NCBI GenBank assembly: GCA_963717505.1
Contig: OY970342.1
Span: 1,184,001-1,248,000 of the forward strand
Reading direction: 5' to 3'
Length of the DNA: 64,000 bases
Origin: Candidatus Eiseniibacteriota bacterium
Lineage (GTDB): Bacteria; Eisenbacteria; RBG-16-71-46
Numbering within the stretch: position 1 is the stretch's first letter; each line of letters opens with the position of its first letter. A program made the position numbers and the translations under genes. Shown piece after piece: positions 12,834 to 24,684 of the stretch. Below the pieces are notes generated by a model. It had not been told where the DNA came from, searched no databases, and was given only the letters and a program-made list of their open reading frames with translations.

Positions 12834-13607
12834 TCAGCTCGAATCACCGATCGGCATGCGGAACAGGTCGCGGGCGTTGGCGGTGGTCAGGCGCACCACC
12901 TCTTCGATGGACAGGCCGCGTGCCTGCGCGATGCGCGCAACCACACGGCGGAGCAGCGCAGGTTCGTTGCGCTTCAGCGAGCGCGGTTCCGGCTCGAGGT
13001 AGGGCGAGTCGGTCTCGAGCAACAGCATCTCGGCCGGCGCCATCGCGAGCGCTTCGTCCAGCTCGGCGTGACCGTAGGTCGCGCAGCCGCCGATCCCGAG
13101 TTTGAAGCCGAGCCCGGCGGCGCGTTCGACCGCGTTCGGGCCATCGTCGAAACAGTGGAGCACCCCGCCCGCCGCCGGTCGCATTTCCTCGAGGATCGCC
13201 AGCGTGTCCTCGAGTGCGCTGCGCTGGTGGATCACGACCGGCAGGCCCATCTGGTCGGCGAGCGCGAGCTGGGCGCGGAACCAGCGTTCCTGGTCGGCGC
13301 GCGGCGCGTAGTCCCGGAAGAAGTCGAGCCCGGTCTCGCCGATCGCGACCACGCGCGCATGCCGGGCGTGATCGCGGAGCGTTTCCAGGTACGAGTCGGG
13401 GACGCGGGCCGATTCGCTGGGATGAACGCCGACGCACAGGTAAACATTGGGGTGAGCGCGCGCCAGATCGTGGGCCTTGGCCACGATCTCGGGCGCATAG
13501 GCGATCTCGATGAAGTGCCGGACCCCGGCCTCGAAGGCGCGGCGCAGGACGTCCTCGCGGTCCTTGTCGAAGCGCTTGTCACACAGATGGCAATGGGTGT
13601 CGATCAT
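12834..13607 (-). CDS. tatD: TatD family DNase
   Basis: MIDTHCH, GVHP, IGETGLD, LHCF, LETDSP, RNEP. Confidence 0.95.
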   Translation of the reverse strand: MIDTHCHLCDKRFDKDREDVLRRAFEAGVRHFIEIAYAPEIVAKAHDLARAHPNVYLCVGVHPSESARVPDSYLETLRDHARHARVVAIGETGLDFFRDYAPRADQERWFRAQLALADQMGLPVVIHQRSALEDTLAILEEMRPAAGGVLHCFDDGPNAVERAAGLGFKLGIGGCATYGHAELDEALAMAPAEMLLLETDSPYLEPEPRSLKRNEPALLRRVVARIAQARGLSIEEVVRLTTANARDLFRMPIGDSS

Positions 13608-13759
13608 GCGCTGCACGTGGCAAAGCCGTGGACGTCGTCGAAGCACGGGTCGTCGAGCAGGGAGCCGAGCATCGTGTCCTCGGCGCGGTAGACGGTGCCC
13701 ATGCCGCCCGAGCCGATCGCCTCGAGGATCTTGTAGTGGGATAGTCGACGGCCGATCAC
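13604..13759 (-). pseudogene. 51-aa remnant of a Hanks-type Ser/Thr protein kinase (not in the ORF track)
   Basis: Translates as MIGRRLSHYKILEAIGSGGMGTVYRAEDTMLGSLLDDPCFDDVHGFATCSA*; AGGAGG RBS; TGA overlaps the tatD ATG (ATGA). Confidence 0.75.
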
Positions 13760-13833
13760 GAAGGGCTTCCTCCTGGCCGGAACCGCGCCAGTCGCGGGCG
13801 CGAAGCGGCCGCAGGGGATCCCGGAGGGGGAAG

Positions 13834-14268
13834 ATGATGGTCGAAGGTCGACCGGGACCGCAACGCGCAGCTGCCCTGGCGGCCGATCTGGCCCGGGCGC
13901 TCGACGCTGAGGACTACGACGCGGTCGGGCCGCGCATCGCCGAAGACTGCGTCTACGAGACGGCGACCGCGGCGATCCGGGGAGCCGAGCCGATCGTCGC
14001 GTCGTACGCGACTTCGGGCGCGTGGACCCGGCGGACGTTCGAGGACGTGCGCTACGAGAGCCGGGTCGAGTCGCTCGACGACCACTCGGCCGCGATCGAG
14101 TTCACGGACTACCTGCTGTCGGCCGGGAACGGATGGCACCGCTATCGCTGCCGCCAGGAATTCACGTTCGGCGACGACGATCGCGTGATCCGCATCATCC
14201 ACCGCGAGCTGCCCGGCGAGCGCGAAGCGCTGAATGCGTTTCTCGCCCGATGCGGGATCGAGGCGTGA
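13834..14268 (+). CDS. NTF2/SnoaL-like protein
   Basis: GGAGG RBS; ALDAEDY...IAEDCVY...IRGAEPIVASY and IIHRELPGE pattern. Confidence 0.7.
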   Translation: MMVEGRPGPQRAAALAADLARALDAEDYDAVGPRIAEDCVYETATAAIRGAEPIVASYATSGAWTRRTFEDVRYESRVESLDDHSAAIEFTDYLLSAGNGWHRYRCRQEFTFGDDDRVIRIIHRELPGEREALNAFLARCGIEA

Positions 14269-14319
14269 CCCGCGACCTCGATCGCCCTCGCCGCGGGGTA
14301 GACCGTTCGCAGGATTCCT

Positions 14320-15402
14320 CTACGGCATCACCAGAACCAGCCTCGGGTAGATGAGATTCTCGTTGGCGACTCGTTCGCGATTCAGATCCCAGATCTCGGG
14401 CCAGCGCGCCACGTCCCCCAGCTCGCGTTGGGCGATGAGGCTCAGCGTGTCCCCCGGCTTGACCGTGTAGTTCTTCTTGCCGGGCACGGGCTTCATGAAG
14501 ACCTCCGACGAGCTCGACAGGTACTCGCGCATCAGATCCGCGTACTGCGGCGTCGCCTTGAAGCCGTCGATTGCCTGGTTGATCTCGTAGACGAGGTCGT
14601 AGTTCCCCTTGGGGACGCCAACCGCGTACTTGGACTGGTTGAGGTTGTATTTCACGATGACGGTGCGTGGATGGTTCTTGATCTCCTCGGCGGCGAAGGG
14701 GTAGTCGTAGATCAGCGCGTCGGCCTGATCGTTCTCGACGGCTTCGAACCAGCCGTCGTCGCCCGAGAACTTGCTGATGTGCGCCCCCGGAATGTTCTGC
14801 TCCACCCACCGCTCGGCCGCCGGATCGTCGTAGATGGCGATGCGCTTCCCGGACAGATCGCCGGGCGAGCGGAACTGGGAGACCATGCCTTCGTGCACGA
14901 TCATGCACAGTCCGAAATCGAGGTATCCGTTCGACCAGTCGACACCCTCGATGGACGGATCGGGGACGTAGCCGGCCATGATGAGATCGATGTCGCCGGC
15001 GGCGAGCCGCGCCGGCAGATCCTCGTAGTCCGCCTCGAGCACTTCGACCTTCTTGGCGCCGATGGCCTCGGCGACGACGCCGGCCATGCGAAAGTCGAAC
15101 CCGTCCTCCTGCTTCCGTGCGTTCACGAAGTGGAGGGGCGGCGCGTCGGGCTCCATGCCGACACGCATCGTGCCGCTGCTCCGGACGCGAGCGAGGACGC
15201 CGCCCTGGGAGGAAGGCGTCCCGCGCGTGTCACCGCTCTCCTTCCGATCCGCGCTCGGCAAGCCGCCCGGGAGCTTGAAGGGCAGGCGGTCACGATAAGA
15301 CCATGCGGCAAAGCCGAGCACGGCCAGCCCCACGACGACGATCAGCAGACGGCCGGCCGCCGTGAGACGGACGGCACCTTTTTCCGATCCCCACATGTTC
15401 AT
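14320..15402 (-). CDS. Membrane-anchored family-3 (polar amino acid) solute-binding protein with C-terminal LysM domain
   Basis: TM LLIVVVGLAVLGFAAW; VRSSGTMRVG...PPLHF...DGFD; LysM YTVKPGDTLSLIA...NLIYP; ATGA overlap with the upstream gene and GGAGG RBS. Confidence 0.85.
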   Translation of the reverse strand: MNMWGSEKGAVRLTAAGRLLIVVVGLAVLGFAAWSYRDRLPFKLPGGLPSADRKESGDTRGTPSSQGGVLARVRSSGTMRVGMEPDAPPLHFVNARKQEDGFDFRMAGVVAEAIGAKKVEVLEADYEDLPARLAAGDIDLIMAGYVPDPSIEGVDWSNGYLDFGLCMIVHEGMVSQFRSPGDLSGKRIAIYDDPAAERWVEQNIPGAHISKFSGDDGWFEAVENDQADALIYDYPFAAEEIKNHPRTVIVKYNLNQSKYAVGVPKGNYDLVYEINQAIDGFKATPQYADLMREYLSSSSEVFMKPVPGKKNYTVKPGDTLSLIAQRELGDVARWPEIWDLNRERVANENLIYPRLVLVMP

Positions 15403-17049
15403 CGACGTCCCTCCGTTGCACCGACCTCGACCAACATCGCCGAGGCGCCGCTGTCGGCCGGCGCCCCGCTCAATAGAGACATGACGGCCTTGGCGACGTC
15501 CAAGCCGGACTGCGCCGCGCCGTTCATGTATCCCTGAAAGTCGTAACTGCAGTGCTCGCCCGCAAAGAAGAGATTGCCGACCGGCATCCCCTCGGAATTG
15601 GCGATGGTGGTCCACTGGCCGGGCTTGTAGCAGGAGTAGCTGCCCTTGGTCCACGGGAAGGTCGGCCAGTGGAACCGGGACACCTTGCCGTTGCGCTTCG
15701 CCAGCGCACCCGGGTACGCGCGCTCGATCCCCGGCAAGAGCCGCGCCGCCGCCGCCTCGGCCGTGCCGTTGCCGGACTCGATGCCGAGCCGCCCGCCCGA
15801 GTAGAGCGTGAGCCCGCCCTCGGCGCCGGGCTGCAGGAAGCTGTTGTCCCAGGCGAGCTGGAACATCTCGTCCGAGTAGGTGGAGCCGGTGTAGCCCTGC
15901 TCGATCCACGGCCGGTTGCGGAACCCAACCAGAACCTTCGCGTTCGTTCCGTAGCCAAGCTCCTGAATCGCCTTCTTTTTGACCGGCGGCAGATCCACCT
16001 GCTCGAACGTCACTTCGCGCAACAGCGTGAACGGAATCGCCAGGACCACGACGTCGGCGTGCTCGTCCTTCGCGCCACTGTCGGTCTGGAAGGTCAGCGT
16101 GAATCCCTTGCCCCGGCCGCGAATGGCCTCGAGCCGGTGGCGCCTCTGAATCTGCGGAGCGACACGCCGGGCCAGTTCGTCCACGAGCTGCTGGTTGCCG
16201 CCGCGCACCTTGTAGCGCTCGTCGCTCTCGCCGAGCAGGTCGAACCGGGCCGCGTCGGCCAGGTCCCCCGTGCCGATGAGGAACAGGAAGTTGAGCGCCG
16301 ATTGCTCGCCCGCTTCCAACCCGTACTCCGTGACGTACGCGACATCGAGGACCTTGCGCAGCCAGCCGCTCGCACCGATCGAGTCGAGGTACTCGGCCAC
16401 CGACATCCGATCGAAGGTCGCCGCCGCCGCCTTCGGTCTGCCAGTCGACGACCTCGCCCATCGAGTCGTAGTGCTCCTGGATCTTCTTCGCCAGCGGCAC
16501 GAACTCGCGGGCCGCCTGGGCGATCGTGTAGTGCCGGCCGCCGACGAAGTACGTCTCCTTCTTGAGACGGCTCGCCTCGGGGTCCAGGGTGTCGAGCTGC
16601 CCGAGGCCGAACTCGTTCATCAGGGCCAGCATCTCCTCGTGACCGCTGTCGATGAATTCACCGCCCAGCTCGGTCGTGATCCCGGTGCCGAGGAGGTCCT
16701 TGGCCGTAAACATCCGGCCGCCGGTCCGGTCGGAGCCTTCGAAGACCTTTGCGGTCAGGCCGGCCTTCTGGAGCTTGTAGGCCGCGTTGAGTCCGGCCAT
16801 GCCGGCGCCGACGATGACGACACGGGCGGCGCCTGCGCCACGCGCGGACCCTGCCCGCGACGACTTCCCGGGGGTGCAGCTCACCATCGCCCCGGCGGCC
16901 GCCAGGGCAGACACCTGGAGGAAGCGCCGGCGGCTGTAAGCCATCTCGACCAGCTCGTCGAGCGGCGGGAGGTCCGTCCGTTCGCGAGCGGCCAGGGTCG
17001 CCAGCCGAATGGCGCGGTTGATCGAATCGAACAGGGGCGTTCGGGCCAC
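15399..17049 (-). CDS. Tat-exported flavin monoamine oxidase family protein (one frameshift near 16420)
   Basis: SRRRFL twin-arginine signal followed by a Cys (AMVSC); VVIVGAGMAGL; RTGGR; ELGGEFI; second frame 15399..16406 has FFAGEH...GYMNGAAQSG. Confidence 0.85.
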
Positions 17050-17088
17050 GGTTACCTCCCTCGAGAACGTCGGGTCGATCCCCGGCGC

Positions 17089-18828
17089 TCAGTCGTTGAG
17101 CAGGACGCGAAGTTCGTTGATCCTCGACTGAAGCGCCGCGCGGTCCACGGTGCGATAAACGTCCGGCAAAACCTCCTTCGACGTGCACTCCTGGACGGCC
17201 ACGAGGATCTGTAGCTCGCGCTCCAGATGGCTCGAGGCCGAGACGAAGTCCTCGAAGACGCCTTTGAGCACCTCGCGAGGGATCGGCAGGTCGCTGCCAT
17301 CGCCGCCGGCATCCGCGACCAGGGCCGCCCGGGCCAGGATGGCTTCGATGTCCGCCCCCGAAAGGCCCGACGGGTCGCCGGCCACCTCGCGGATCGACGT
17401 GGCGTTCGTCGTGAGGCCGCCCTTCTTGAGCATGATCTTGAACAGCGCGTCGTACTCCGAATCGTTCTGGGGGTAGAAGAGCGCGAGATGCTCCTCGGCC
17501 CGCCCCTGACGCTTCAAGTCGATCGGCAGCAGGTCGGGCCGGCAGGTGATCAGGAACCAGACGATCCGGCCGCGGTACTCGGTATTCGCCATGAACGAGG
17601 CGAGCTGGGCGAAGACGCGATTGGACGTGCCGGAGTCGCCCTCCTGATTGCGGTCGCCGAGAAACGCGTCGGCTTCGTCGATGATGACGCCCACCGGCCA
17701 CATCGCGTGGAGCAGCTTGAGGATCTTCTCGAGATTGCCTTCGGTCACGCCCTGCCACTGGGAACGGAAGTTCAGGAACTTGACGCACGGAAACCCGATC
17801 TCGCCGGTGAAGCAATTGACCAGGAAGGTCTTGGCCGAGCCGACCGGCCCGGCGATGAGATAGCCCATCGGCACTCCGCGCAACCGGCCCGACAGGATGG
17901 CCTGGGCCGCGCGGCGCAGCCGCTGCTTGACCCCTTCGTGCCCGGACACCATGTCGAGGGTGAACTTCGACTCCACGTATTCGAGGAGGCCGAAGCACTC
18001 GGCTTCGAGCACCGCCTTCTTCTGTTGGCGTAGCTCGCCGGCGTCGAGCCGCGCCCGTCGCTCGTCCACCGAGGACAGGATCTGCCGGAGCTGGATGCGC
18101 GCCAGACCCGACGTGAGTCGGGACAGCCGCTCGGCGGTCAGATCCGAGTTGGCCGCGAACCACGCTCCATCGCGGACCGACTGGATGAACGCGAGCCGCT
18201 CGGCCTCTCCCGGCCGCTCGACTTCGATCTCGATGGTTTGGGGCGAGCGCACGATCCGCGTGCTCAGGTCGGCCAGGTTCTCGGTGACGAGTACGAACGT
18301 CACATTGGCGGCGAGCAGCGCCGGATCGGTCGACCATTTCTGAAAGAACAGGCGGGAGGCGCGATCTTCGGCGCCGGCGTCACCGGCTGATTCGGGAATC
18401 AACGTCTCGGCGTAGGGGAAGATCACCGCCACGCCGACCGAGGAGGGTCGATTCACCATCTGTTTGAGGAACGAGTCGAGCAGAGAAAGGAACCGGCCCG
18501 GATCGCGCGGGGTCGAGCGCGCGTAGTCAGTACCGTGGATGGCGTCCACGGCCTCGAGGACCTCATTGAAGAGCTTATGGGACTCGCGGGTATGGAAGGT
18601 GGCGCCGTTGGCGCGCTGGTACTCGAGCACGACCTCGCGCGCGCCGAAGATCCGCTCGGCGAGCCACGCCGTCAGCGGAAGGAAACGGGGAGTGCTCCCC
18701 GACTCGGGTGGCACCGGGACGACGTCATGGGTGTTGCCGTGCAGGATGAACGTGTTGCCGAGGCGGGCCCGAATGCCGTGAACCAGCCTGCCGGCCCAGG
18801 CCGGCCCGATGTCGGCCGCCGTACTCAA
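17089..18828 (-). CDS. Classical-clade AAA+ ATPase with a degenerate N-terminal AAA-like module
   Basis: Walker A GPVGSAKT; pore loop SQWQGVTEGNL; Walker B VIIDEAD; SRH ITCRPDLLPIDLKRQGR; TTG start overlapping the upstream TGA. Confidence 0.85.
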   Translation of the reverse strand: MSTAADIGPAWAGRLVHGIRARLGNTFILHGNTHDVVPVPPESGSTPRFLPLTAWLAERIFGAREVVLEYQRANGATFHTRESHKLFNEVLEAVDAIHGTDYARSTPRDPGRFLSLLDSFLKQMVNRPSSVGVAVIFPYAETLIPESAGDAGAEDRASRLFFQKWSTDPALLAANVTFVLVTENLADLSTRIVRSPQTIEIEVERPGEAERLAFIQSVRDGAWFAANSDLTAERLSRLTSGLARIQLRQILSSVDERRARLDAGELRQQKKAVLEAECFGLLEYVESKFTLDMVSGHEGVKQRLRRAAQAILSGRLRGVPMGYLIAGPVGSAKTFLVNCFTGEIGFPCVKFLNFRSQWQGVTEGNLEKILKLLHAMWPVGVIIDEADAFLGDRNQEGDSGTSNRVFAQLASFMANTEYRGRIVWFLITCRPDLLPIDLKRQGRAEEHLALFYPQNDSEYDALFKIMLKKGGLTTNATSIREVAGDPSGLSGADIEAILARAALVADAGGDGSDLPIPREVLKGVFEDFVSASSHLERELQILVAVQECTSKEVLPDVYRTVDRAALQSRINELRVLLND

Positions 18829-19712
18829 CGTCGGGTCACCTTGCGGCCGCTCCGGCCCCCCGGGTCGCCTTCGGTCGGCGCCACGTCCACGTCGGACAGT
18901 CCCGCGCCCCATTCGCTCGCGCCTTCGCGCAACAATGCCTCCATCTCGCGGACCACCCGGCCCGAGCTCTCCGACTGCAGCACAATGGCATCCAGCTCGC
19001 CCGCGATCGCCTCGGGATCGCGCATCGAGATCGAGTTCTGGTGCAGCACCTCGAGCAGCGAAGCCATCGAGTCGAGCTCGGTGGACAGGGCCTTCATCGT
19101 GCCGAGCGCGTCCGCGTTCGACGCCAGCAACCGTCGCTTGAGCTCGAGGTTTTCGCCGATGGCGGCCCGTGCCCGATCGTTCAGGTTCGTCTGCTCGAGC
19201 TCCTGTTCGAGGCGTGCGATCTCCTTCTGGATCCGCTCGGGCGGACGCGCGGCCAGGGTCTGGTCGTATCGCTGGAGCGCCGTCATGCGCTGCACGCAAC
19301 CGTCGAGGATCTGGTCGAGCTTGTCGCGTTGTTCCGACAGGTAGACCTGGGAGATGCCGTGAAGTCCCTGGTAGTTGGCTTCGATCTGACGGCACTGCGA
19401 CTCCAGGGCGGCGTATCGGCGCCCGAACTCGGGAACGAACGAATCGATGATCCGCTTCCGTCGATCCATCACCCCCCGGAGCGCCCGCTCCCGCCGCCGG
19501 CGCGCGACCCATCGACGGAGCGGACCCGAATCGAGAAGGGGCAGCAGTACCAGCTGCCCGCCGACCCAAAGCAGAAGGGGCAGGGGACTCTGCGCGACGA
19601 GCGACACCAGGACCACGCCGCCCAGGAGGATCGCCTGATACTGGTTGAGGATCAGGTCGCTCAGGATCGACCCGGCCGGACCGCGGTCCTGATCTCGATC
19701 GGGCAGGGCCAT
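18825..19712 (-). CDS. Hypothetical protein with N-terminal TM hairpin and long coiled coil
   Basis: Two hydrophobic segments (ILLGGVVLVSLV; LLLWVGGQLVLLPLL) followed by heptad-rich helices; tightly packed between pspA and the ATPase. Confidence 0.75.
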   Translation of the reverse strand: MALPDRDQDRGPAGSILSDLILNQYQAILLGGVVLVSLVAQSPLPLLLWVGGQLVLLPLLDSGPLRRWVARRRRERALRGVMDRRKRIIDSFVPEFGRRYAALESQCRQIEANYQGLHGISQVYLSEQRDKLDQILDGCVQRMTALQRYDQTLAARPPERIQKEIARLEQELEQTNLNDRARAAIGENLELKRRLLASNADALGTMKALSTELDSMASLLEVLHQNSISMRDPEAIAGELDAIVLQSESSGRVVREMEALLREGASEWGAGLSDVDVAPTEGDPGGRSGRKVTRR

Positions 19713-19720
19713 CGCCCGAA

Positions 19721-20467
19721 TCAAGAGCCCCGGTTCTCGGCGACTCGCGGGCCCACGGTCGGGGTCGCCGGCGTCTCCGTGACCGACGCCGGCTTGGCCA
19801 GGCCCATCTCGGCTTCGAACTGCTGAAGAATGCTGGCCGCTTTCAGTTTGCGGGCGGTGCGCTCCCGCTCGATGGTCTGCATGTCGATCGATCCCGTCGC
19901 GATCTCGACCGCCGCCTTCGATTCGGCGGCCTCTTGCTGGATCCGCTCGAGGAACTTGTCGGCCGTGGCCGCCACGCCGTAGGACTGCAGCTCGACGATG
20001 GCGTCCGCGGCGCTCTTCATCACGACCGACTTCTTGTGTTCCTTGAGCGCCTTCTGGCACATCTCGATCTTGGCCTTGAGCTTGGTCTTGAGCGACTCGA
20101 CCGAGACGCTGGCCGAGTCGTGTGCGTTCTTCGCCGCCGTGAGCTGATCCTCGGTGCTCGCGAGGTCGACCCGCAGCTGCTGGATCTGGATCGCGTCGTG
20201 CTCGGCCACGTCGCGAGCCGCCGCCGACCCGTCTCGCAACGCCGCCTGGATCGAAGCCGTGAGCTGCTTGTCCTGGCGCACGAGCCCGTCCCGTTCCTCC
20301 TCGAGGCGCAGCACCGTCGCCCGCGTCGCGACCAGGACCGAGTTGAGCTTCGGCATCGTCGTCCGCATCTCCTCGATCGCGTCCTCGAGCATGACTTCCG
20401 GATCTTCGGCCTTGGAGATGAAGAAGCCCATCCAGGCGCGGAACAGCCTAGCGATTCTCTCGAACAT
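19721..20467 (-). CDS. pspA: PspA/IM30 (Vipp1/ESCRT-III superfamily) protein
   Basis: Amphipathic N-terminus MFERIARLFRAWMGFFISKAEDPEVMLEDAIEEM (cf. EDPEKML); all-helical coiled coil; GGAGGT RBS. Confidence 0.88.
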   Translation of the reverse strand: MFERIARLFRAWMGFFISKAEDPEVMLEDAIEEMRTTMPKLNSVLVATRATVLRLEEERDGLVRQDKQLTASIQAALRDGSAAARDVAEHDAIQIQQLRVDLASTEDQLTAAKNAHDSASVSVESLKTKLKAKIEMCQKALKEHKKSVVMKSAADAIVELQSYGVAATADKFLERIQQEAAESKAAVEIATGSIDMQTIERERTARKLKAASILQQFEAEMGLAKPASVTETPATPTVGPRVAENRGS

Positions 20468-21128
20468 GACCACCTCCCTGTGTCGTGGGCGGCACGGTGG
20501 CCGAGATGGGGTTCTCGGACACGAAATAGCGGACGGTGTCCGCGATCCGGTTCTCCTCCGCGCGCTTGCGGTCCCGCCATGCGGCGAGACTCGATTCCTC
20601 CTCGCGAACGTGCCGGTTGTTGGCGTCGATCTTCGCCCGGAGCTGGGCCACCTGCTGCTCGATCTCCTTCTCGAGGCTCCGATTTTCCGTCTCGCCGGCC
20701 GCGCGCAGAGCGGCGACCGTTTTCTCCAGCACCTTTTCGTAGGTGTCGAGGGCACGGTCGCGTTGCACCGCGTCTTCCACGATGCTGTCGACCGATACGC
20801 GGGCGGCATCCAGCGCCACCAGGATCGACTTTCGCTTCACGTCCTCGGGCAGGTCTCGCAGGTGCTCGCTGTCGAGCATCTCCGCCACCTTGAGGATGGA
20901 ATAACCGTGGGCGGGTGTGACGATCCGGGCCGCGGAATAGATCTCGTCGAAAACCGTAGGGTCGGCCACCGGCTTGGCGAACGCGGCTTCGGGAACGGTT
21001 TCGGGTGCGAGTTCTCCCGCCCGTCTCGGAGCCGCCGCCTTGCCTGATGGATTTGGTCGCGCCGGTGCGCCTTTGGCGTCGGCCGGACGGTCCGTCACCA
21101 CGAAAAAGTCATACCACTTCTTCGTCAT
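20448..21128 (-). CDS. Hypothetical protein, first gene of the pspA operon (C-terminal coiled coil)
   Basis: GAGG RBS; MTKKWYDFFVV, Pro/Ala linker, FDEIYSAA...YSILKVAEML, coiled-coil tail; overlaps the pspA start. Confidence 0.75.
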   Translation of the reverse strand: MTKKWYDFFVVTDRPADAKGAPARPNPSGKAAAPRRAGELAPETVPEAAFAKPVADPTVFDEIYSAARIVTPAHGYSILKVAEMLDSEHLRDLPEDVKRKSILVALDAARVSVDSIVEDAVQRDRALDTYEKVLEKTVAALRAAGETENRSLEKEIEQQVAQLRAKIDANNRHVREEESSLAAWRDRKRAEENRIADTVRYFVSENPISATVPPTTQGGGHVRENR

Positions 21129-21155
21129 GGTCGAGCCCCCTCGCAATGGGGCGGC

Positions 21156-21164
21156 ATTCTAGCA
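21156..21164 (-). promoter_or_regulatory. Putative extended -10 promoter (TGcTAGAAT) for the pspA operon
   Basis: Minus strand reads GTGCTAGAATG about 28 nt upstream of ATG 21128. Confidence 0.5.
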
Positions 21165-21216
21165 CTTGCCGCCGGCGGAGTCGGATGCCGCAGCAGGGGT
21201 TCGCGCCGGAACGCGA

Positions 21217-22938
21217 CTACCCTTTCGCCGGCTCCTTCAACTCGATCCGCGGGAACAAGATCTTCGATTCGGCCAGCTTGCGGCTCGCCGCCGCCGGGCC
21301 ATAGTTCGGCTGGGCCGCCTCGCCGCGCGTCTCACCAGGTTTCCCCGGCAACGCGAGCAATGCCCACAGCTCTTCGCTCTTTGCCGGGACTACCGGCCAG
21401 GTCCACACCGCCACCAGTCGTAGCGTTTCCAGCAGCGCGTTCAGCGTCGTCGCCAGCTCGGCGTGGCGCGTGGGATCCTTGGCCACCGCCCACGGCTTGA
21501 CCCGTTCGATCAGCTCGTTGGCGCGCACCACCGGCTGGAGTGCCGCGTCGAGCGCCTCGTCGATGCGGATCTCCTGATAGGCCTTGGGTGCCTCGACCGC
21601 GGCGACCTGCGCCGCCGCGATCAAGGCGTCGAGCGCCGAGCGTGCGGTGGGATCGGTGAGCGACGCCGGATCCCACTCGACCGGCGCTTCGCCGCCCAGA
21701 TACTTGTGCACCATGGTCACCGTGCGGCTCGCCAGGTTGCCCAGGTCGTTCGCCAGATGGGTGTTGATATGCTCCACGTACTGCTCGTACGTGAACTCGC
21801 CGTCGCGTCCGGTCGGGATCGCGTGCGCCAGGTAGAAACGGAGCGCATCGGGACCGCCCATTTGGGACAGCGCCACCGGATCCATCTGATTGCCGAGCGA
21901 CTTCGAGAGCTTCTCGCCCTTCATGTAGATGAAGCCGTGGACGTACACCTGTCGCGGGAGTGGCACGCCGGCCGCGAGCAACAAGGCAGGCCATAGCACG
22001 CAGTGGAATCGGCTGATGTCCTTGCCGATCAGGTGCAGCGCGTTGGTGTACTGCGGGTGCGAGGTTCCAGCCCAGGCTGCGCCCGGGCGGCCCTGCCCGT
22101 CGAGATGCTGGAACTCGTCCTGGCGGGTCGCGCCGGGCCCGGCGACGTCACCCTCCTTGGCCAACCACCACAGCGAGTACTTGCGCTCGGGCCAGCCGAT
22201 CGCCGACAGGTAGTTGAGCAACGCGTCGGCCCACACGTACACGGTGTGGCCCTCGCCGCCCGGGATTTCCTCGGGCAGCGACACCCCCCAGGGCACGTTC
22301 GGGCGCGTGACGCTGACGTCCTGGAGTCCATCGCGAATCACGCTCAGCACTTCGTTGCGACGGTAGTCGGGCTGGATGAAGTCGGGATGAGCTTCGAGGT
22401 GCTTGAGCAATGCCTCGTCGTATTCCGAGAGGCGGAAGAAGAAATTCGTCTCCCGGATCTTGCGCGGTTTCACCTTGTGCTCGGGGCAGCGGCCCTTGGC
22501 GTCGAGGTCCTTCTCCTGCTTGAACGCCTCGCAGCCCTCACAGTACAGGCCTTCGTAGTCCGACTCGAACAGCACCGGCTGCCCGGTCTTGGGACTGTGT
22601 GCGTCCCACAGTCGCCGGAACAGCTCCTGGACCGCGAGCGCATGGCGCGGGTCCGAGGTGCGCACGAACTGGTCGTGAGAGATGTCGAGCGCCTTCCAGG
22701 TGTCGACGAACTTCTTGGCGATCTCGTCGACGAAGGCGCGGGGTTCCTTGCCCACCGCGGCCGCCGCATGGGCGATCTTCTGGCCGTGCTCGTCGGTCCC
22801 GGTCAGGAAGAAGGTCTTGTCCCCGCGTTGCCGGTGGAAGCGCGCCAGGCTGTCGGCGAGGACTTTCTCGTAGGCGTGACCGAGATGCGGCGGACCGTTG
22901 ACGTAGTCGATCGCGGTCGTGATGTAAAAGCGGGGCAC
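21217..22938 (-). CDS. metG: Methionine--tRNA ligase (short form, no C-terminal Trbp domain)
   Basis: FYITTAIDYVNGPPHLGH, TGTDEHG, CEGC..CPEH knuckle, YVWADAL, IGKDI, KLSKS. Confidence 0.96.
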   Translation of the reverse strand: MPRFYITTAIDYVNGPPHLGHAYEKVLADSLARFHRQRGDKTFFLTGTDEHGQKIAHAAAAVGKEPRAFVDEIAKKFVDTWKALDISHDQFVRTSDPRHALAVQELFRRLWDAHSPKTGQPVLFESDYEGLYCEGCEAFKQEKDLDAKGRCPEHKVKPRKIRETNFFFRLSEYDEALLKHLEAHPDFIQPDYRRNEVLSVIRDGLQDVSVTRPNVPWGVSLPEEIPGGEGHTVYVWADALLNYLSAIGWPERKYSLWWLAKEGDVAGPGATRQDEFQHLDGQGRPGAAWAGTSHPQYTNALHLIGKDISRFHCVLWPALLLAAGVPLPRQVYVHGFIYMKGEKLSKSLGNQMDPVALSQMGGPDALRFYLAHAIPTGRDGEFTYEQYVEHINTHLANDLGNLASRTVTMVHKYLGGEAPVEWDPASLTDPTARSALDALIAAAQVAAVEAPKAYQEIRIDEALDAALQPVVRANELIERVKPWAVAKDPTRHAELATTLNALLETLRLVAVWTWPVVPAKSEELWALLALPGKPGETRGEAAQPNYGPAAASRKLAESKILFPRIELKEPAKG

Positions 22939-23142: not shown

Positions 23143-23706
23143 ATGGCCTTCGATGCTGCGCTGACGAGCCGGCTCGCGACCTGGGTGTTCGCCGCCAACG
23201 AAGCGGATTGGGACGCGTTGTACGCGGAGCAGCTGCCGCGCGTCTACAACTTCTTCCGCTACCGCGTCGGCAGCGGTGCGGTCGCCGAAGACCTGACTTC
23301 GGTCACCTTCGAGAAGGCCTGGGTTGCCCGCAATCGGTACCGGCGGGATCTGGGGGCGTTCACGACGTGGCTGCTGACCATCGCCCGCAACGTCGCGACC
23401 GACCACTATCGGCGCCGTCGGGATCACGTTCCGCTCGAGGACGCTCGAGGCGTGGCCGCGGCCGACGATGCATCGGACGAAGCGGAGCGCCGGTCGGATC
23501 GCGTTCGACTCCGCCAGCTGCTGGCCGAGCTGGAGGAGCGGGAGCAAGAGCTGATCGCACTGAAGTATGGAGCCGGACTCACGAACCGGGCGATCGCCCG
23601 GATCACGGGGCTCAGCGAAACCAATGTCGGAACGGTTCTCCACCGGACCGTCCGTTCTCTTAGAGCGGCGTGGGACGAAACCCCGGCCGCGAGCAAAGGA
23701 GCATGA
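23143..23706 (+). CDS. ECF RNA polymerase sigma factor
   Basis: AEDLTSVTFEKAW, FTTWLLTIARN, region 4 IARITGLSETNVGTVLHR. Confidence 0.92.
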   Translation: MAFDAALTSRLATWVFAANEADWDALYAEQLPRVYNFFRYRVGSGAVAEDLTSVTFEKAWVARNRYRRDLGAFTTWLLTIARNVATDHYRRRRDHVPLEDARGVAAADDASDEAERRSDRVRLRQLLAELEEREQELIALKYGAGLTNRAIARITGLSETNVGTVLHRTVRSLRAAWDETPAASKGA

Positions 23707-24684
23707 AGATGGACGATCGTTTTCTCTACGAGGCGCGCCGCGATCCCGAACCGGCGTTCGCGGAGGGCTTGCGAGGCCGGCTGCGTCGCGCGGAATCCAG
23801 CCGCGTGATGGGCCGCGTGCCGTTGCGCCCGACGCTGGCCGCTGCGGTCCTGGTCGGCACGGTCGTGTCGATCTTCGTGTTCCCGTCGGTGCGGGCGTCC
23901 GCGCAGGCCATGCTCGACCTGTTCCGCGTGCGCAACTTCGCGCCGGTGGCGTTCGACCCACAGCGGCTCGAGAAGCTGCGCGACATGGACCACGATCAGC
24001 CGCTGATGATCTTCGACAAGAAGGAAGTGCTCCATGAGCCGGGTGAGCCGGTGACGGTCGCAACCCCCGAGAAGGCGGCGGAAGTGGTCGGCTATCCGGT
24101 GCGAACTCTGCAGTTCCTGCCGCGGGGGCTGGCGCTTCAGAGCGTCAAGGTGGAGGACCGCGGCGCCATGCGGCTGTCCGCCGATGCCGACAAGGTGCAC
24201 ACGCTGCTCGAGACTTTGGACCTGGGCGACCTCCGGTTTCCGCCCGAGCTGGACGGCCAATGGGTCACGGTGCGCAAGCCGCAAGTCGTCTACCAGAACT
24301 ACGGCGTCGGAAAGCTCCAGGCGACGCTGATCCAGGCGCAAAGCCCGGAAGTGGAGCTGCCGCCGGGCGCGGATCTCCCGCGACTGGCCGAGATTGGGCC
24401 TCCGGATCCTGGGCGTCGACAAGACCCAGGCGCGCCGTTTGGCCCAGTCGGTGGATTGGCGCACGACCCTGCTGGTGCCGGTGCCGATGAACGCCGCGTC
24501 GTTCCGCGGCATCGAGGTCCAGGGCAATCCCGGGCTGCTGATCGAGACGGTCAAGCGCACCGAGGACGGTGATTCGCAGCGCGAAGGCACCATGGTGCTC
24601 TGGTCCGACGCCGGCAAGCTCTACGCAGTGGTCAGCAACCTTCACAGCGGGGACACCGTGTTCATGGCGGAGTCGGTGCGGTAG
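23703..24684 (+). CDS. Putative single-pass anti-sigma factor (frameshift near 24397)
   Basis: ATGA overlap with the sigma gene; TM followed by VRASAQAMLDLFRV; continues in frame 24394..24684 (LRILGVD...DWRTTLLVPVP). Confidence 0.7.

Follow-up and report, generated by a model that had tools for sequence, protein, structure and literature searches.

A divergent PspA, a two-helix membrane protein and a Cdc48-like AAA+ ATPase as a candidate membrane-remodelling module in an Eisenbacteria operon

Introduction

Do some bacteria pair a PspA/IM30 protein with an ATPase dedicated to the turnover of its polymers? The question is raised by an operon of six genes, here named A to F, in a 64-kb stretch of the genome of Candidatus Eiseniibacteriota bacterium (contig OY970342.1, positions 1,184,001 to 1,248,000; this whole stretch is called the window in the following), in which gene B encodes a PspA, gene C a membrane protein with two transmembrane (TM) helices and gene D a tandem AAA+ ATPase. 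According to the available part of a 2025 review (PMC7619361), a Vps4-like ATPase appears to be absent in bacteria, and in the available part of Makarova et al. 2024 (PMC10936438) ESCRT systems are restricted to archaea and eukaryotes, with Vps4 derived from a Cdc48-type ATPase. With regard to the disassembly and recycling of the bacterial ESCRT-III proteins PspA and Vipp1, the module described here offers a specific candidate, composed of three proteins and equipped with a tail predicted to serve in recognition. If our reading is true, it would constitute an ATP-driven machine for PspA remodelling, of a kind believed to be missing from bacteria.

Our answer is graded. That PspA, C and D constitute one functional unit is strongly supported by their co-inheritance, and the operon is best explained as a module for the remodelling or repair of membranes, with a special PspA subfamily at its base. 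With slightly better than even confidence we further propose that D acts as a Cdc48-like unfoldase, which recycles PspA polymers via their C-terminal tail, while C serves as the membrane hub. The three genes and their relevant parts are located in the window as follows (aa, amino acids):

19721..20467, minus strand: gene B, PspA/IM30 of 248 aa, divergent subfamily
19751..19762, minus strand: PTVG motif, PspA residues 236-239, at the end of the C-terminal extension, candidate recognition tail
18825..19712, minus strand: gene C, membrane protein of 295 aa, no known family
19533..19643, minus strand: TM hairpin of C, residues 24-60, with AlphaFold2 helices 24-40 and 44-60
17089..18828, minus strand: gene D, tandem AAA+ ATPase, TTG start
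17974..18828, minus strand: D1 of the ATPase, residues 1-285, degenerate AAA-like domain
17089..17973, minus strand: D2 of the ATPase, residues 286-579, classical AAA domain

Results

Co-inheritance of PspA, C and D

A scan of a genome collection confirmed 485 relatives of D, and gene neighbourhoods were studied for 80 loci. Co-occurrence was counted in two samples of 201 genomes each, one from the phylum of the window (sample 1) and one from the phylum of Gracilimonas (sample 2). In sample 1, D was present in 12 genomes and C in the identical 12, always beside D (a shallower C profile, built on alignment A1, recovered only 7 of them). The PspA family PF04012 matched in 12/12 of these genomes, ten above the cut-off and two at 30.8 and 31.7 bits, and the PspA gene was located on the contig of D within 5 kb in 11/12, while the D-negative genomes contained one strong canonical PspA and three marginal matches. 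In sample 2, 51 genomes carried D and the identical 51 a strong match to C (E ≤ 2.8e-58), with two marginal C matches elsewhere. A PspA of 55–74 bits was found in 51/51, at most 1.6 kb from C in 50 of them, and 24 D-negative genomes carried only canonical PspA at 114–187 bits. C and D were close in 36/51 genomes, at least 0.3 Mb apart on the same contig in 5/51 and on separate contigs in 10/51, and five additional genomes, picked for a lone D, all had a PspA adjoining C elsewhere. Linkage is thus not needed for co-occurrence, since PspA, C and D are found together even when C and D are unlinked. The initial annotation of the window had already treated PspA, the TM protein and the ATPase as one unit, which is borne out by C and PspA accompanying the ATPase in 12/12 and 51/51 genomes. 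The neighbourhood survey it had suggested, with ATPase homologs mostly lacking PspA as the opposing outcome, found a PspA in 63/63.

The layout of the loci differs between lineages. The order A-B-C-D-E-F is maintained to the contig ends in 35 Acidobacteriota-type loci, with a stop/start overlap of C and D in at least 16 of them, while 27 Balneolaceae-type loci encode PspA, a 158-aa protein, C, an enoyl-CoA hydratase, a CNNM/CorC protein and D. The 158-aa protein is a half-PspA paralog, related to the C-terminal half of PspA (hhalign 97.4%, 1.6e-11), which retains the EMG site and a KTIG tail (L045:4431-4904, and at the same position in 26 other Balneolaceae-type loci), and in at least 11 loci of this type its stop codon overlaps with the C homolog's start. 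Gene order would therewith place C at the hub of the module, abutting D in Acidobacteriota and the half-PspA paralog in Balneolaceae. A further locus, L087, reads PspA, PBP+OmpA protein, ABC_tran protein, C, D. The partner combining solute binding and peptidoglycan binding, with which the initial annotation had linked the system to the cell wall, thus recurs, as SBP_bac_3+LysM in the window and as PBP+OmpA in L087.

Two side observations concern these loci. In Balneolaceae and related genomes an enoyl-CoA hydratase gene and a CNNM/CorC-type gene follow the PspA-C module (L045:5791-7936; L082, L083 and L085), including cases in which D is unlinked, and the hydratase and the CNNM/CorC-type transporter may be further accessory partners. 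Three loci labelled Gammaproteobacteria, Dokdonella and Pseudomonadota (L022, L023, L026) contain the operon without E at about 70% identity to the Acidobacteriota version, which may reflect mis-binning or recent transfer.

The ATPase D

Pfam AAA (PF00004) matches D at residues 324-449 (2.8e-17), within D2. Among 21 homologs of 47–75% identity (alignment A2) D2 conserves a Walker A motif GPVG[ST][AG]KT, reading GPVGSAKT in the window, and the Walker B motif IDEADA, the pore loop NFRSQWQGVTEGN and the Arg fingers KRQGR are invariant. Hallmarks of the classical AAA clade are thereby present, namely Walker A and B, the aromatic pore loop 1 (SQWQG) and the two Arg fingers of the second region of homology (SRH). 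The one exception is the sensor-1 Asn, for which the whole family has Ala, Cys or Ser, with Cys in the window (TCR facing TNR of AFG2 in the PDB alignment). In D1, LHGNxxD stands in the place of Walker A and [DP]YAE[TS] in the place of Walker B (PYAET in the window).

The AlphaFold2 model of D (predicted local distance difference test, pLDDT, 83.3; predicted TM-score, pTM, 0.77) has an AAA-like alpha/beta domain which begins at about residue 10, and neither model nor alignment contains a separate N-terminal domain. In a Foldseek search with this model, about 600 columns aligned with D1-D2 of Cdc48, p97, NVL and Rix7, with E values down to 8.8e-19 and TM-scores up to 0.59. By sequence, AFG2, VCP and Cdc48 are the nearest solved structures, and NVL and NSF are also among the best 60 PDB matches, from which Vps4 is absent. 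The NCBIfam scores, all of them far under the cut-offs, were 5.3e-19 for CDC48, 1e-12 for PAN, 5.7e-12 for FtsH and 1.6e-6 for CdvC, and D is not a CDC48 ortholog, since it reaches 68 bits against a cut-off of 802.65 bits. Pfam identified no MIT domain, and the N-terminus aligns to D1 of Cdc48/p97 instead. As a tandem AAA fold without MIT and without separate N domain, D reads as a Cdc48-like type II ATPase whose D1 is dead. Judged from sequence and model together, it is assigned here as a tandem Cdc48-like AAA+ protein with a degenerate D1 and an active-looking D2, and not as a Vps4 homolog in the narrow sense. Two points of the initial annotation are hereby revised: the ATPase has two AAA-like domains and not one, and its label as Vps4-like is given up, as it has no MIT and is nearer to Cdc48/p97/AFG2 than to Vps4/CdvC. 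In one homolog (L024:8001-9902) a Pro/Ser/Glu-rich repeat of about 54 residues, made up of PSPEPRA-like units, is inserted in a surface loop of D1, a loop which thus tolerates large insertions.

The divergent PspA and its tail

The product of gene B matches PspA_IM30 (PF04012) at 2e-15; its 57.5 bits exceed the cut-off of 33.9, and the match extends over positions 3-206 of the 220 in the profile. Its residues 1-202 match Vipp1 (8qhv, E 2.3e-5), and Synechocystis and Nostoc Vipp1/PspA entries match as well, so that its sequence assigns it to the PspA/IM30 family of the ESCRT-III superfamily. It is the sole PspA found in a search of the whole genome (completeness 86.7%). The same genome gave no match to Snf7 and none to PspB or PspC at E ≤ 0.1, in searches which did not cover pspF and liaRS. 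The absence of pspB and pspC, noted initially for the window, therefore extends to the genome.

What sets the D-associated PspAs apart is an additional acidic or Pro-rich extension of 20-45 residues beyond the conserved EMG site, which terminates in K/P-T/S-I/V/M-G followed by basic residues, with G239 invariant (alignment A5). A strict version of this motif, composed after the D-associated sequences had been viewed, was found within the last 30 residues of 65/68 D-associated PspAs vs 0/16 canonical PspAs from D-negative genomes, and the three remaining D-associated proteins read PSLG, KTLG and RQIG. PspAs for these counts were identified with a clean profile. An iterative hidden Markov model (HMM) search had drifted for B and F, and its rows for both were discarded because over-long open reading frames (ORFs) of high GC content had merged neighbouring genes, while its rows for A, C and D and the ORF ends were kept.

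The membrane protein C

C is conserved over its full length from Acidobacteriota to Balneolaceae at 17-21% identity, including an acidic-then-basic C-terminus (alignment A1), and a profile search retrieved 1359 representative clusters at E ≤ 1e-3. The AlphaFold2 model (pLDDT 87) consists of the TM hairpin followed by six cytoplasmic helices, which form a bundle of about 210 residues. Both termini are predicted to be cytoplasmic, since an Arg-rich stretch follows TM2 and the positive-inside rule would place it inside. C has no Pfam match, its profile gave nothing meaningful against PDB sequences, and hhalign against PspA returned a probability of 0.9%.

Fold searches with helical bundles are not decisive, and here they neither show nor exclude a BAR-like or ESCRT-III-like fold. 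Foldseek with the C model found nothing at E ≤ 1e-3, the best match being the APPL2 BAR-PH domain at 6.9e-3 with a TM-score of 0.17. VIA-align reached a best Z of 11.1, with BAR/F-BAR entries at Z 8-10 and helical-bundle noise at about 13, and no ESCRT-III entry stood among its 50 rows or among the matches that Foldseek listed. As a candidate family we considered Rv2743c/PspM, the nearest named cluster in the ESM Atlas (0.88), and rejected it, as 0/22 C members match PF25587 or PspC at E ≤ 10.

Operon layout, promoter and accessory genes

The six genes are co-oriented on the minus strand of the window, from 14320 to 21128. The 3' end of the operon is F, and the next gene is convergent. Genes and junctions, namely a 20-nucleotide (nt) overlap of A and B, an 8-nt gap between B and C, a TTGA overlap of C and D, a 39-nt gap between D and E and an ATGA overlap of E and F, reproduce those of the initial annotation exactly. 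The remaining features are:

21156..21164, minus strand: extended -10-like box TGCTAGAAT, 28 nt 5' of gene A, inside the 88-nt gap between metG and A
20448..21128, minus strand: gene A, 226 aa, cytoplasmic, no family
15399..17049, minus strand: gene E, flavin amine oxidase with a twin-arginine translocation (Tat) leader, 1651 nt as assembled
14320..15402, minus strand: gene F, signal anchor, SBP_bac_3 and C-terminal LysM

The box 5' of A, from which the initial annotation had the operon start, is present. The pattern TGNTANAAT occurs once in the window, at TGCTAGAAT, where 0.33 occurrences are expected and at least one is found in 30/100 shuffles, so that its uniqueness, taken alone, is weak evidence for a promoter. 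More telling is its conservation: among the 23 of 35 Acidobacteriota-type loci in which the start of A could be placed, counting up to 90 nt 5' of A, TGnTAnnAT (mostly TGCTACAAT) lies 28-53 nt 5' of the A start in 20, while one of the other three has TACAAT without TG and two have no box. This supports a genuine extended -10 promoter, because the box is kept while the spacers are otherwise dissimilar. A two-hexamer sigma-70 scan of the locus gave 0 promoters, and the three terminator-like sites at the locus, with 3.8 expected, are all inside genes. A search for RNA runs that contain the locus listed none.

The genome is a single contig of 4.16 Mb. The locus is flanked by metG and tatD, which are directly adjacent in 5/5 genomes of the same family without the operon, and D was found in 1/86 other genomes of this family. 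As metG and tatD adjoin each other in operon-less relatives and D is rare in the family, the 7.6-kb block looks like a cassette inserted between the two genes. A small convergent ORF at about 13870-14268 (plus strand) also lies within the metG-tatD block (13607-21217). Just upstream of metG, on the other strand (23143-24572, plus strand), we noted an ORF for a 187-aa sigma factor of the extracytoplasmic function (ECF) type, which overlaps the start of a 300-aa ORF resembling a membrane anti-sigma factor, both identities being read from the translations alone.

Gene A is limited to Acidobacteriota-type loci, where tblastn detected it in 25/35, most of the remaining loci ending upstream. In its product the N-terminus (MxKKWYxxFVV) and the C-terminal domain are conserved, and the two are joined by a Pro/Ala-rich linker. 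It matches nothing in Pfam or NCBIfam and has no PDB relative by profile, hhalign gave 8.6% against PspA and 0.4% against the Balneolaceae 158-aa protein, and its nearest ESM Atlas clusters are unnamed Acidobacteriota clusters. F is a signal-anchored periplasmic protein with SBP_bac_3 (4.2e-15) and LysM (1.1e-5), whose best PDB matches are amino-acid-binding proteins. E combines Pfam Amino_oxidase with a twin-arginine leader and belongs to the MAO/LAAO/putrescine-oxidase family. It lies between D and F in 26/29 loci that hold both and is missing from the other 3/29.

While E holds its place in the gene order initially listed for the six genes, it does not run in one frame, since the frame changes within a GGC run near 16416-16419. 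E is single-frame in relatives, and minus one base it would have 1650 nt. Contigs from public metagenome runs (X1, X2, X3 and X5) were compared with the locus. The base at 16419 is missing from the lone covering contigs, near-identical and built from short reads, of X1 (489 nt, 5 other differences) and X5 (209 nt, 1 other difference). In X3, one base is absent at 16416 from a contig of greater distance, and in X2 (depth 2.89) the deletion was not seen. Given the public contigs without the base and the single-frame relatives, we read the frameshift as an insertion error of the assembly and not as a pseudogene, with E intact in nature. As the completeness is 86.7% for a single-contig genome, indels of this kind may also have corrupted further genes of the assembly.

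Discussion

We propose a model in which PspA would polymerise at the cytoplasmic face of the inner membrane. C, anchored by its TM hairpin with the helical bundle in the cytoplasm, would act as a hub which tethers PspA and couples it to the ATPase. D would form a soluble Cdc48/p97-like tandem AAA+ ring and engage the flexible PspA extension ending in K/P-T/S-I/V-G, whereupon the D2 pore loops would pull subunits from the polymer, leading to an ATP-driven turnover analogous to that of Vps4 on ESCRT-III, with an unrelated mode of recognition. F and E would be lineage-specific periplasmic accessories which connect the module both with the cell wall and with a cue, either an amine or an amino acid, and A a lineage-specific cytoplasmic accessory. 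Gene content and domain architectures, the promoter box kept among the loci, the PspA tail motif and the strict co-occurrence of PspA, C and D are observed, and the physical contacts, the direction towards disassembly and the roles of A, E and F are what we infer here. The invariant pore loop, Walker B and Arg fingers, together with the tandem Cdc48/p97 fold, make D look like a threading machine.

A complex prediction of the ATPase with the PspA C-terminus, which the initial annotation had proposed as a check, lends the model weak support. With D (alignment A2) and PspA residues 190-248 (alignment A5) as inputs, the complex score was 0.39 (runs 0.39, 0.37 and 0.43) with the best of three controls at 0.00, agreement between runs covered at least 51% of contacts, with a pLDDT of at least 51 for the partner; no interface was reported for this prediction. 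In the calibration, the mark was passed by 58/80 solved complexes and 2/110 mismatched pairs. Passes with a score of at most 0.60 comprised only 7 of the 80 solved complexes and both passing mismatches, so that a pass at 0.39 is wrong in more cases than it is right, except where the pairing was likely beforehand.

This last property of the score is one of several points that weigh against the proposed turnover of PspA by D. The tightest neighbour of D in Acidobacteriota is C and not PspA, so that the true substrate of D could be C or some other membrane protein. Junglas et al. 2024 (PMC11746142) report, in the available part of the paper, that PspA rods of Synechocystis bind ATP and hydrolyse it on their own, which means that PspA dynamics do not strictly depend on an ATPase from outside. 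D has neither MIT nor, among the domains looked for, another known ESCRT-III-binding domain. The replaced sensor-1 Asn, together with GPVGSAKT in place of GPVGTGKT as Walker A in the lineage of the window, suggests that ATP hydrolysis by D may be slow or atypical. The pattern for the tail motif was composed in hindsight, and canonical PspAs terminate in a similar K/E-Q-L/M-G at the position equivalent to EMG, with 9/16 captured by a looser pattern. Finally, the genomes within each sample are related, hence the 63 D genomes are not independent events and the co-occurrence counts overstate their number.

The alternative that survives best, which we nevertheless consider unlikely, is that C and D form a pair for extraction or quality control of membrane proteins in the manner of Cdc48, Msp1 or FtsH, with C or other membrane proteins as substrate and PspA co-recruited to seal or stabilise the membrane without being threaded. 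Such a pair would fit the adjacency of C and D in 12/12 genomes of sample 1, often with stop/start overlap, the Cdc48-like and not Vps4-like nature of D, and the conserved acidic-then-basic tail that C has of its own. It leaves unexplained, however, why 63/63 D-bearing genomes contain a dedicated tailed PspA subfamily and why C is translationally coupled to the half-PspA in Balneolaceae. The PspA tail, the one partner paired with D in the complex prediction, gave a weak pass.

Still less probable, in our view, is a role of D as holdase, assembly factor or negative regulator, keeping PspA inactive or loading it onto C, comparable to the sequestration of PspF by PspA or the Hsp70-assisted assembly of Vipp1. 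With its sensor-1 changed and its D1 degenerate, D could hydrolyse ATP slowly and keep hold of its substrate for long, and in Proteobacteria PspA binds the AAA+ protein PspF, as stated in the available part of the 2025 review (PMC7619361). D, however, is without a DNA-binding domain and falls in the classical AAA clade instead of the NtrC clade, and its D2 pore loop, Walker B and Arg fingers are invariant, as expected of an active translocase. That the genes form no joint machine, being either a periplasmic amine-sensing or transport unit (E, F) juxtaposed by chance or regulation to a generic stress gene, or else an anti-phage defence island, we regard as very improbable: E is dispensable, the cassette looks like an insertion between metG and tatD by comparison with operon-less relatives, and PADLOC gave a weak IetA/IteA match for D, but this match (7e-6) covers the generic AAA core only, A, B, C and F have no defence-family match, and PspA, C and D co-occur exactly in two phyla, unlinked layouts included.

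Returning to the turnover of PspA by D, a farther-reaching reading, which we find possible but on balance doubtful, is that bacteria of several phyla would possess a complete ATP-driven machine of the ESCRT-III type, composed of a tailed PspA, a 2TM hub of a new fold family and a Cdc48-like unfoldase, with the K-T-(I/V)-G tail functioning in a way similar to the MIT-interacting motif (MIM). As Vps4 is inferred to derive from a Cdc48-type ATPase in the available text of PMC10936438, the pairing of PspA with a Cdc48-like ATPase could be a solution that bacteria reached independently, or it could be left over from a regulation of ESCRT-III that preceded Vps4. The module is present in cultured, non-pathogenic strains of Gracilimonas amylolytica, G. 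mengyeensis, G. tropica, G. halophila and Fodinibius salsisoli, and the hypothesis is therefore directly testable in vitro and by genetics.

Comparison with known systems

With ESCRT-III/Vps4 (CdvB/CdvC) the module shares a polymer-forming protein of the ESCRT-III superfamily, a dedicated ATPase of the classical AAA+ clade and a flexible C-terminal tail with a short conserved motif in a position comparable to MIM. It differs in that D has two AAA domains and no MIT, scoring 5.3e-19 for CDC48 vs 1.6e-6 for CdvC, that the tail motif is unrelated and that a 2TM hub protein is here an obligatory third partner. D resembles Cdc48, p97, VAT and NVL in its tandem D1-D2 fold and in the aromatic pore loop and SRH Arg fingers of D2, but it has no N-terminal double-psi-barrel, its D1 is without Walker A and B, and its score stays at 68 vs 802.65 bits. 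The anchors of the classical Psp and Lia systems (PspB/PspC, LiaI, PspM/Rv2743c) are, as C, small membrane proteins encoded beside PspA and presumably tether it. They have no sequence match to C, which features a cytoplasmic bundle of about 210 residues, and unlike C none of them is tied to a dedicated ATPase.

The closest relation is to an association described by Ravi et al. (mSystems 2024, PMC11237479), of whose text a part was available. There, the neighbour of PspA is a protein that has two AAA+ domains, of which the N-terminal one is inactive, longer operons are extended by ABC and PBPB-OmpA genes, components which are optional in the paper's wording, and an ATP-dependent membrane remodelling is proposed from gene neighbourhoods by analogy to Snf7/Vps4. 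The pairing, which the initial annotation thought might have been noted in comparative surveys, is thus already in print together with the remodelling idea, so that novelty was somewhat overstated there, while its remark on missing experiments holds insofar as full-text literature searches found no experimental study of this ATPase. Both systems have PspA with a two-AAA ATPase whose N-terminal domain is inactive (co-occurring here in 12/12 and 51/51 genomes), a TM partner and a solute-binding and peptidoglycan-binding protein, and L087 displays the fuller layout of the paper. The window, in contrast, carries LysM where the paper has OmpA, is without genes for an ABC ATPase or permease and contains A and the Tat amine oxidase in addition. 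The TM partner of Ravi et al. is described as 'Snf7 homologs with a TM segment', whereas C has no detectable similarity to PspA or Snf7, a comparison of families that is made by description. The system is accordingly a variant of a PspA/two-AAA association already noted in silico, to which three specific, falsifiable features are added here: PspA, C and D are inherited together without exception in the two samples, C takes the hub position, and the PspA subfamily carries the tail motif.

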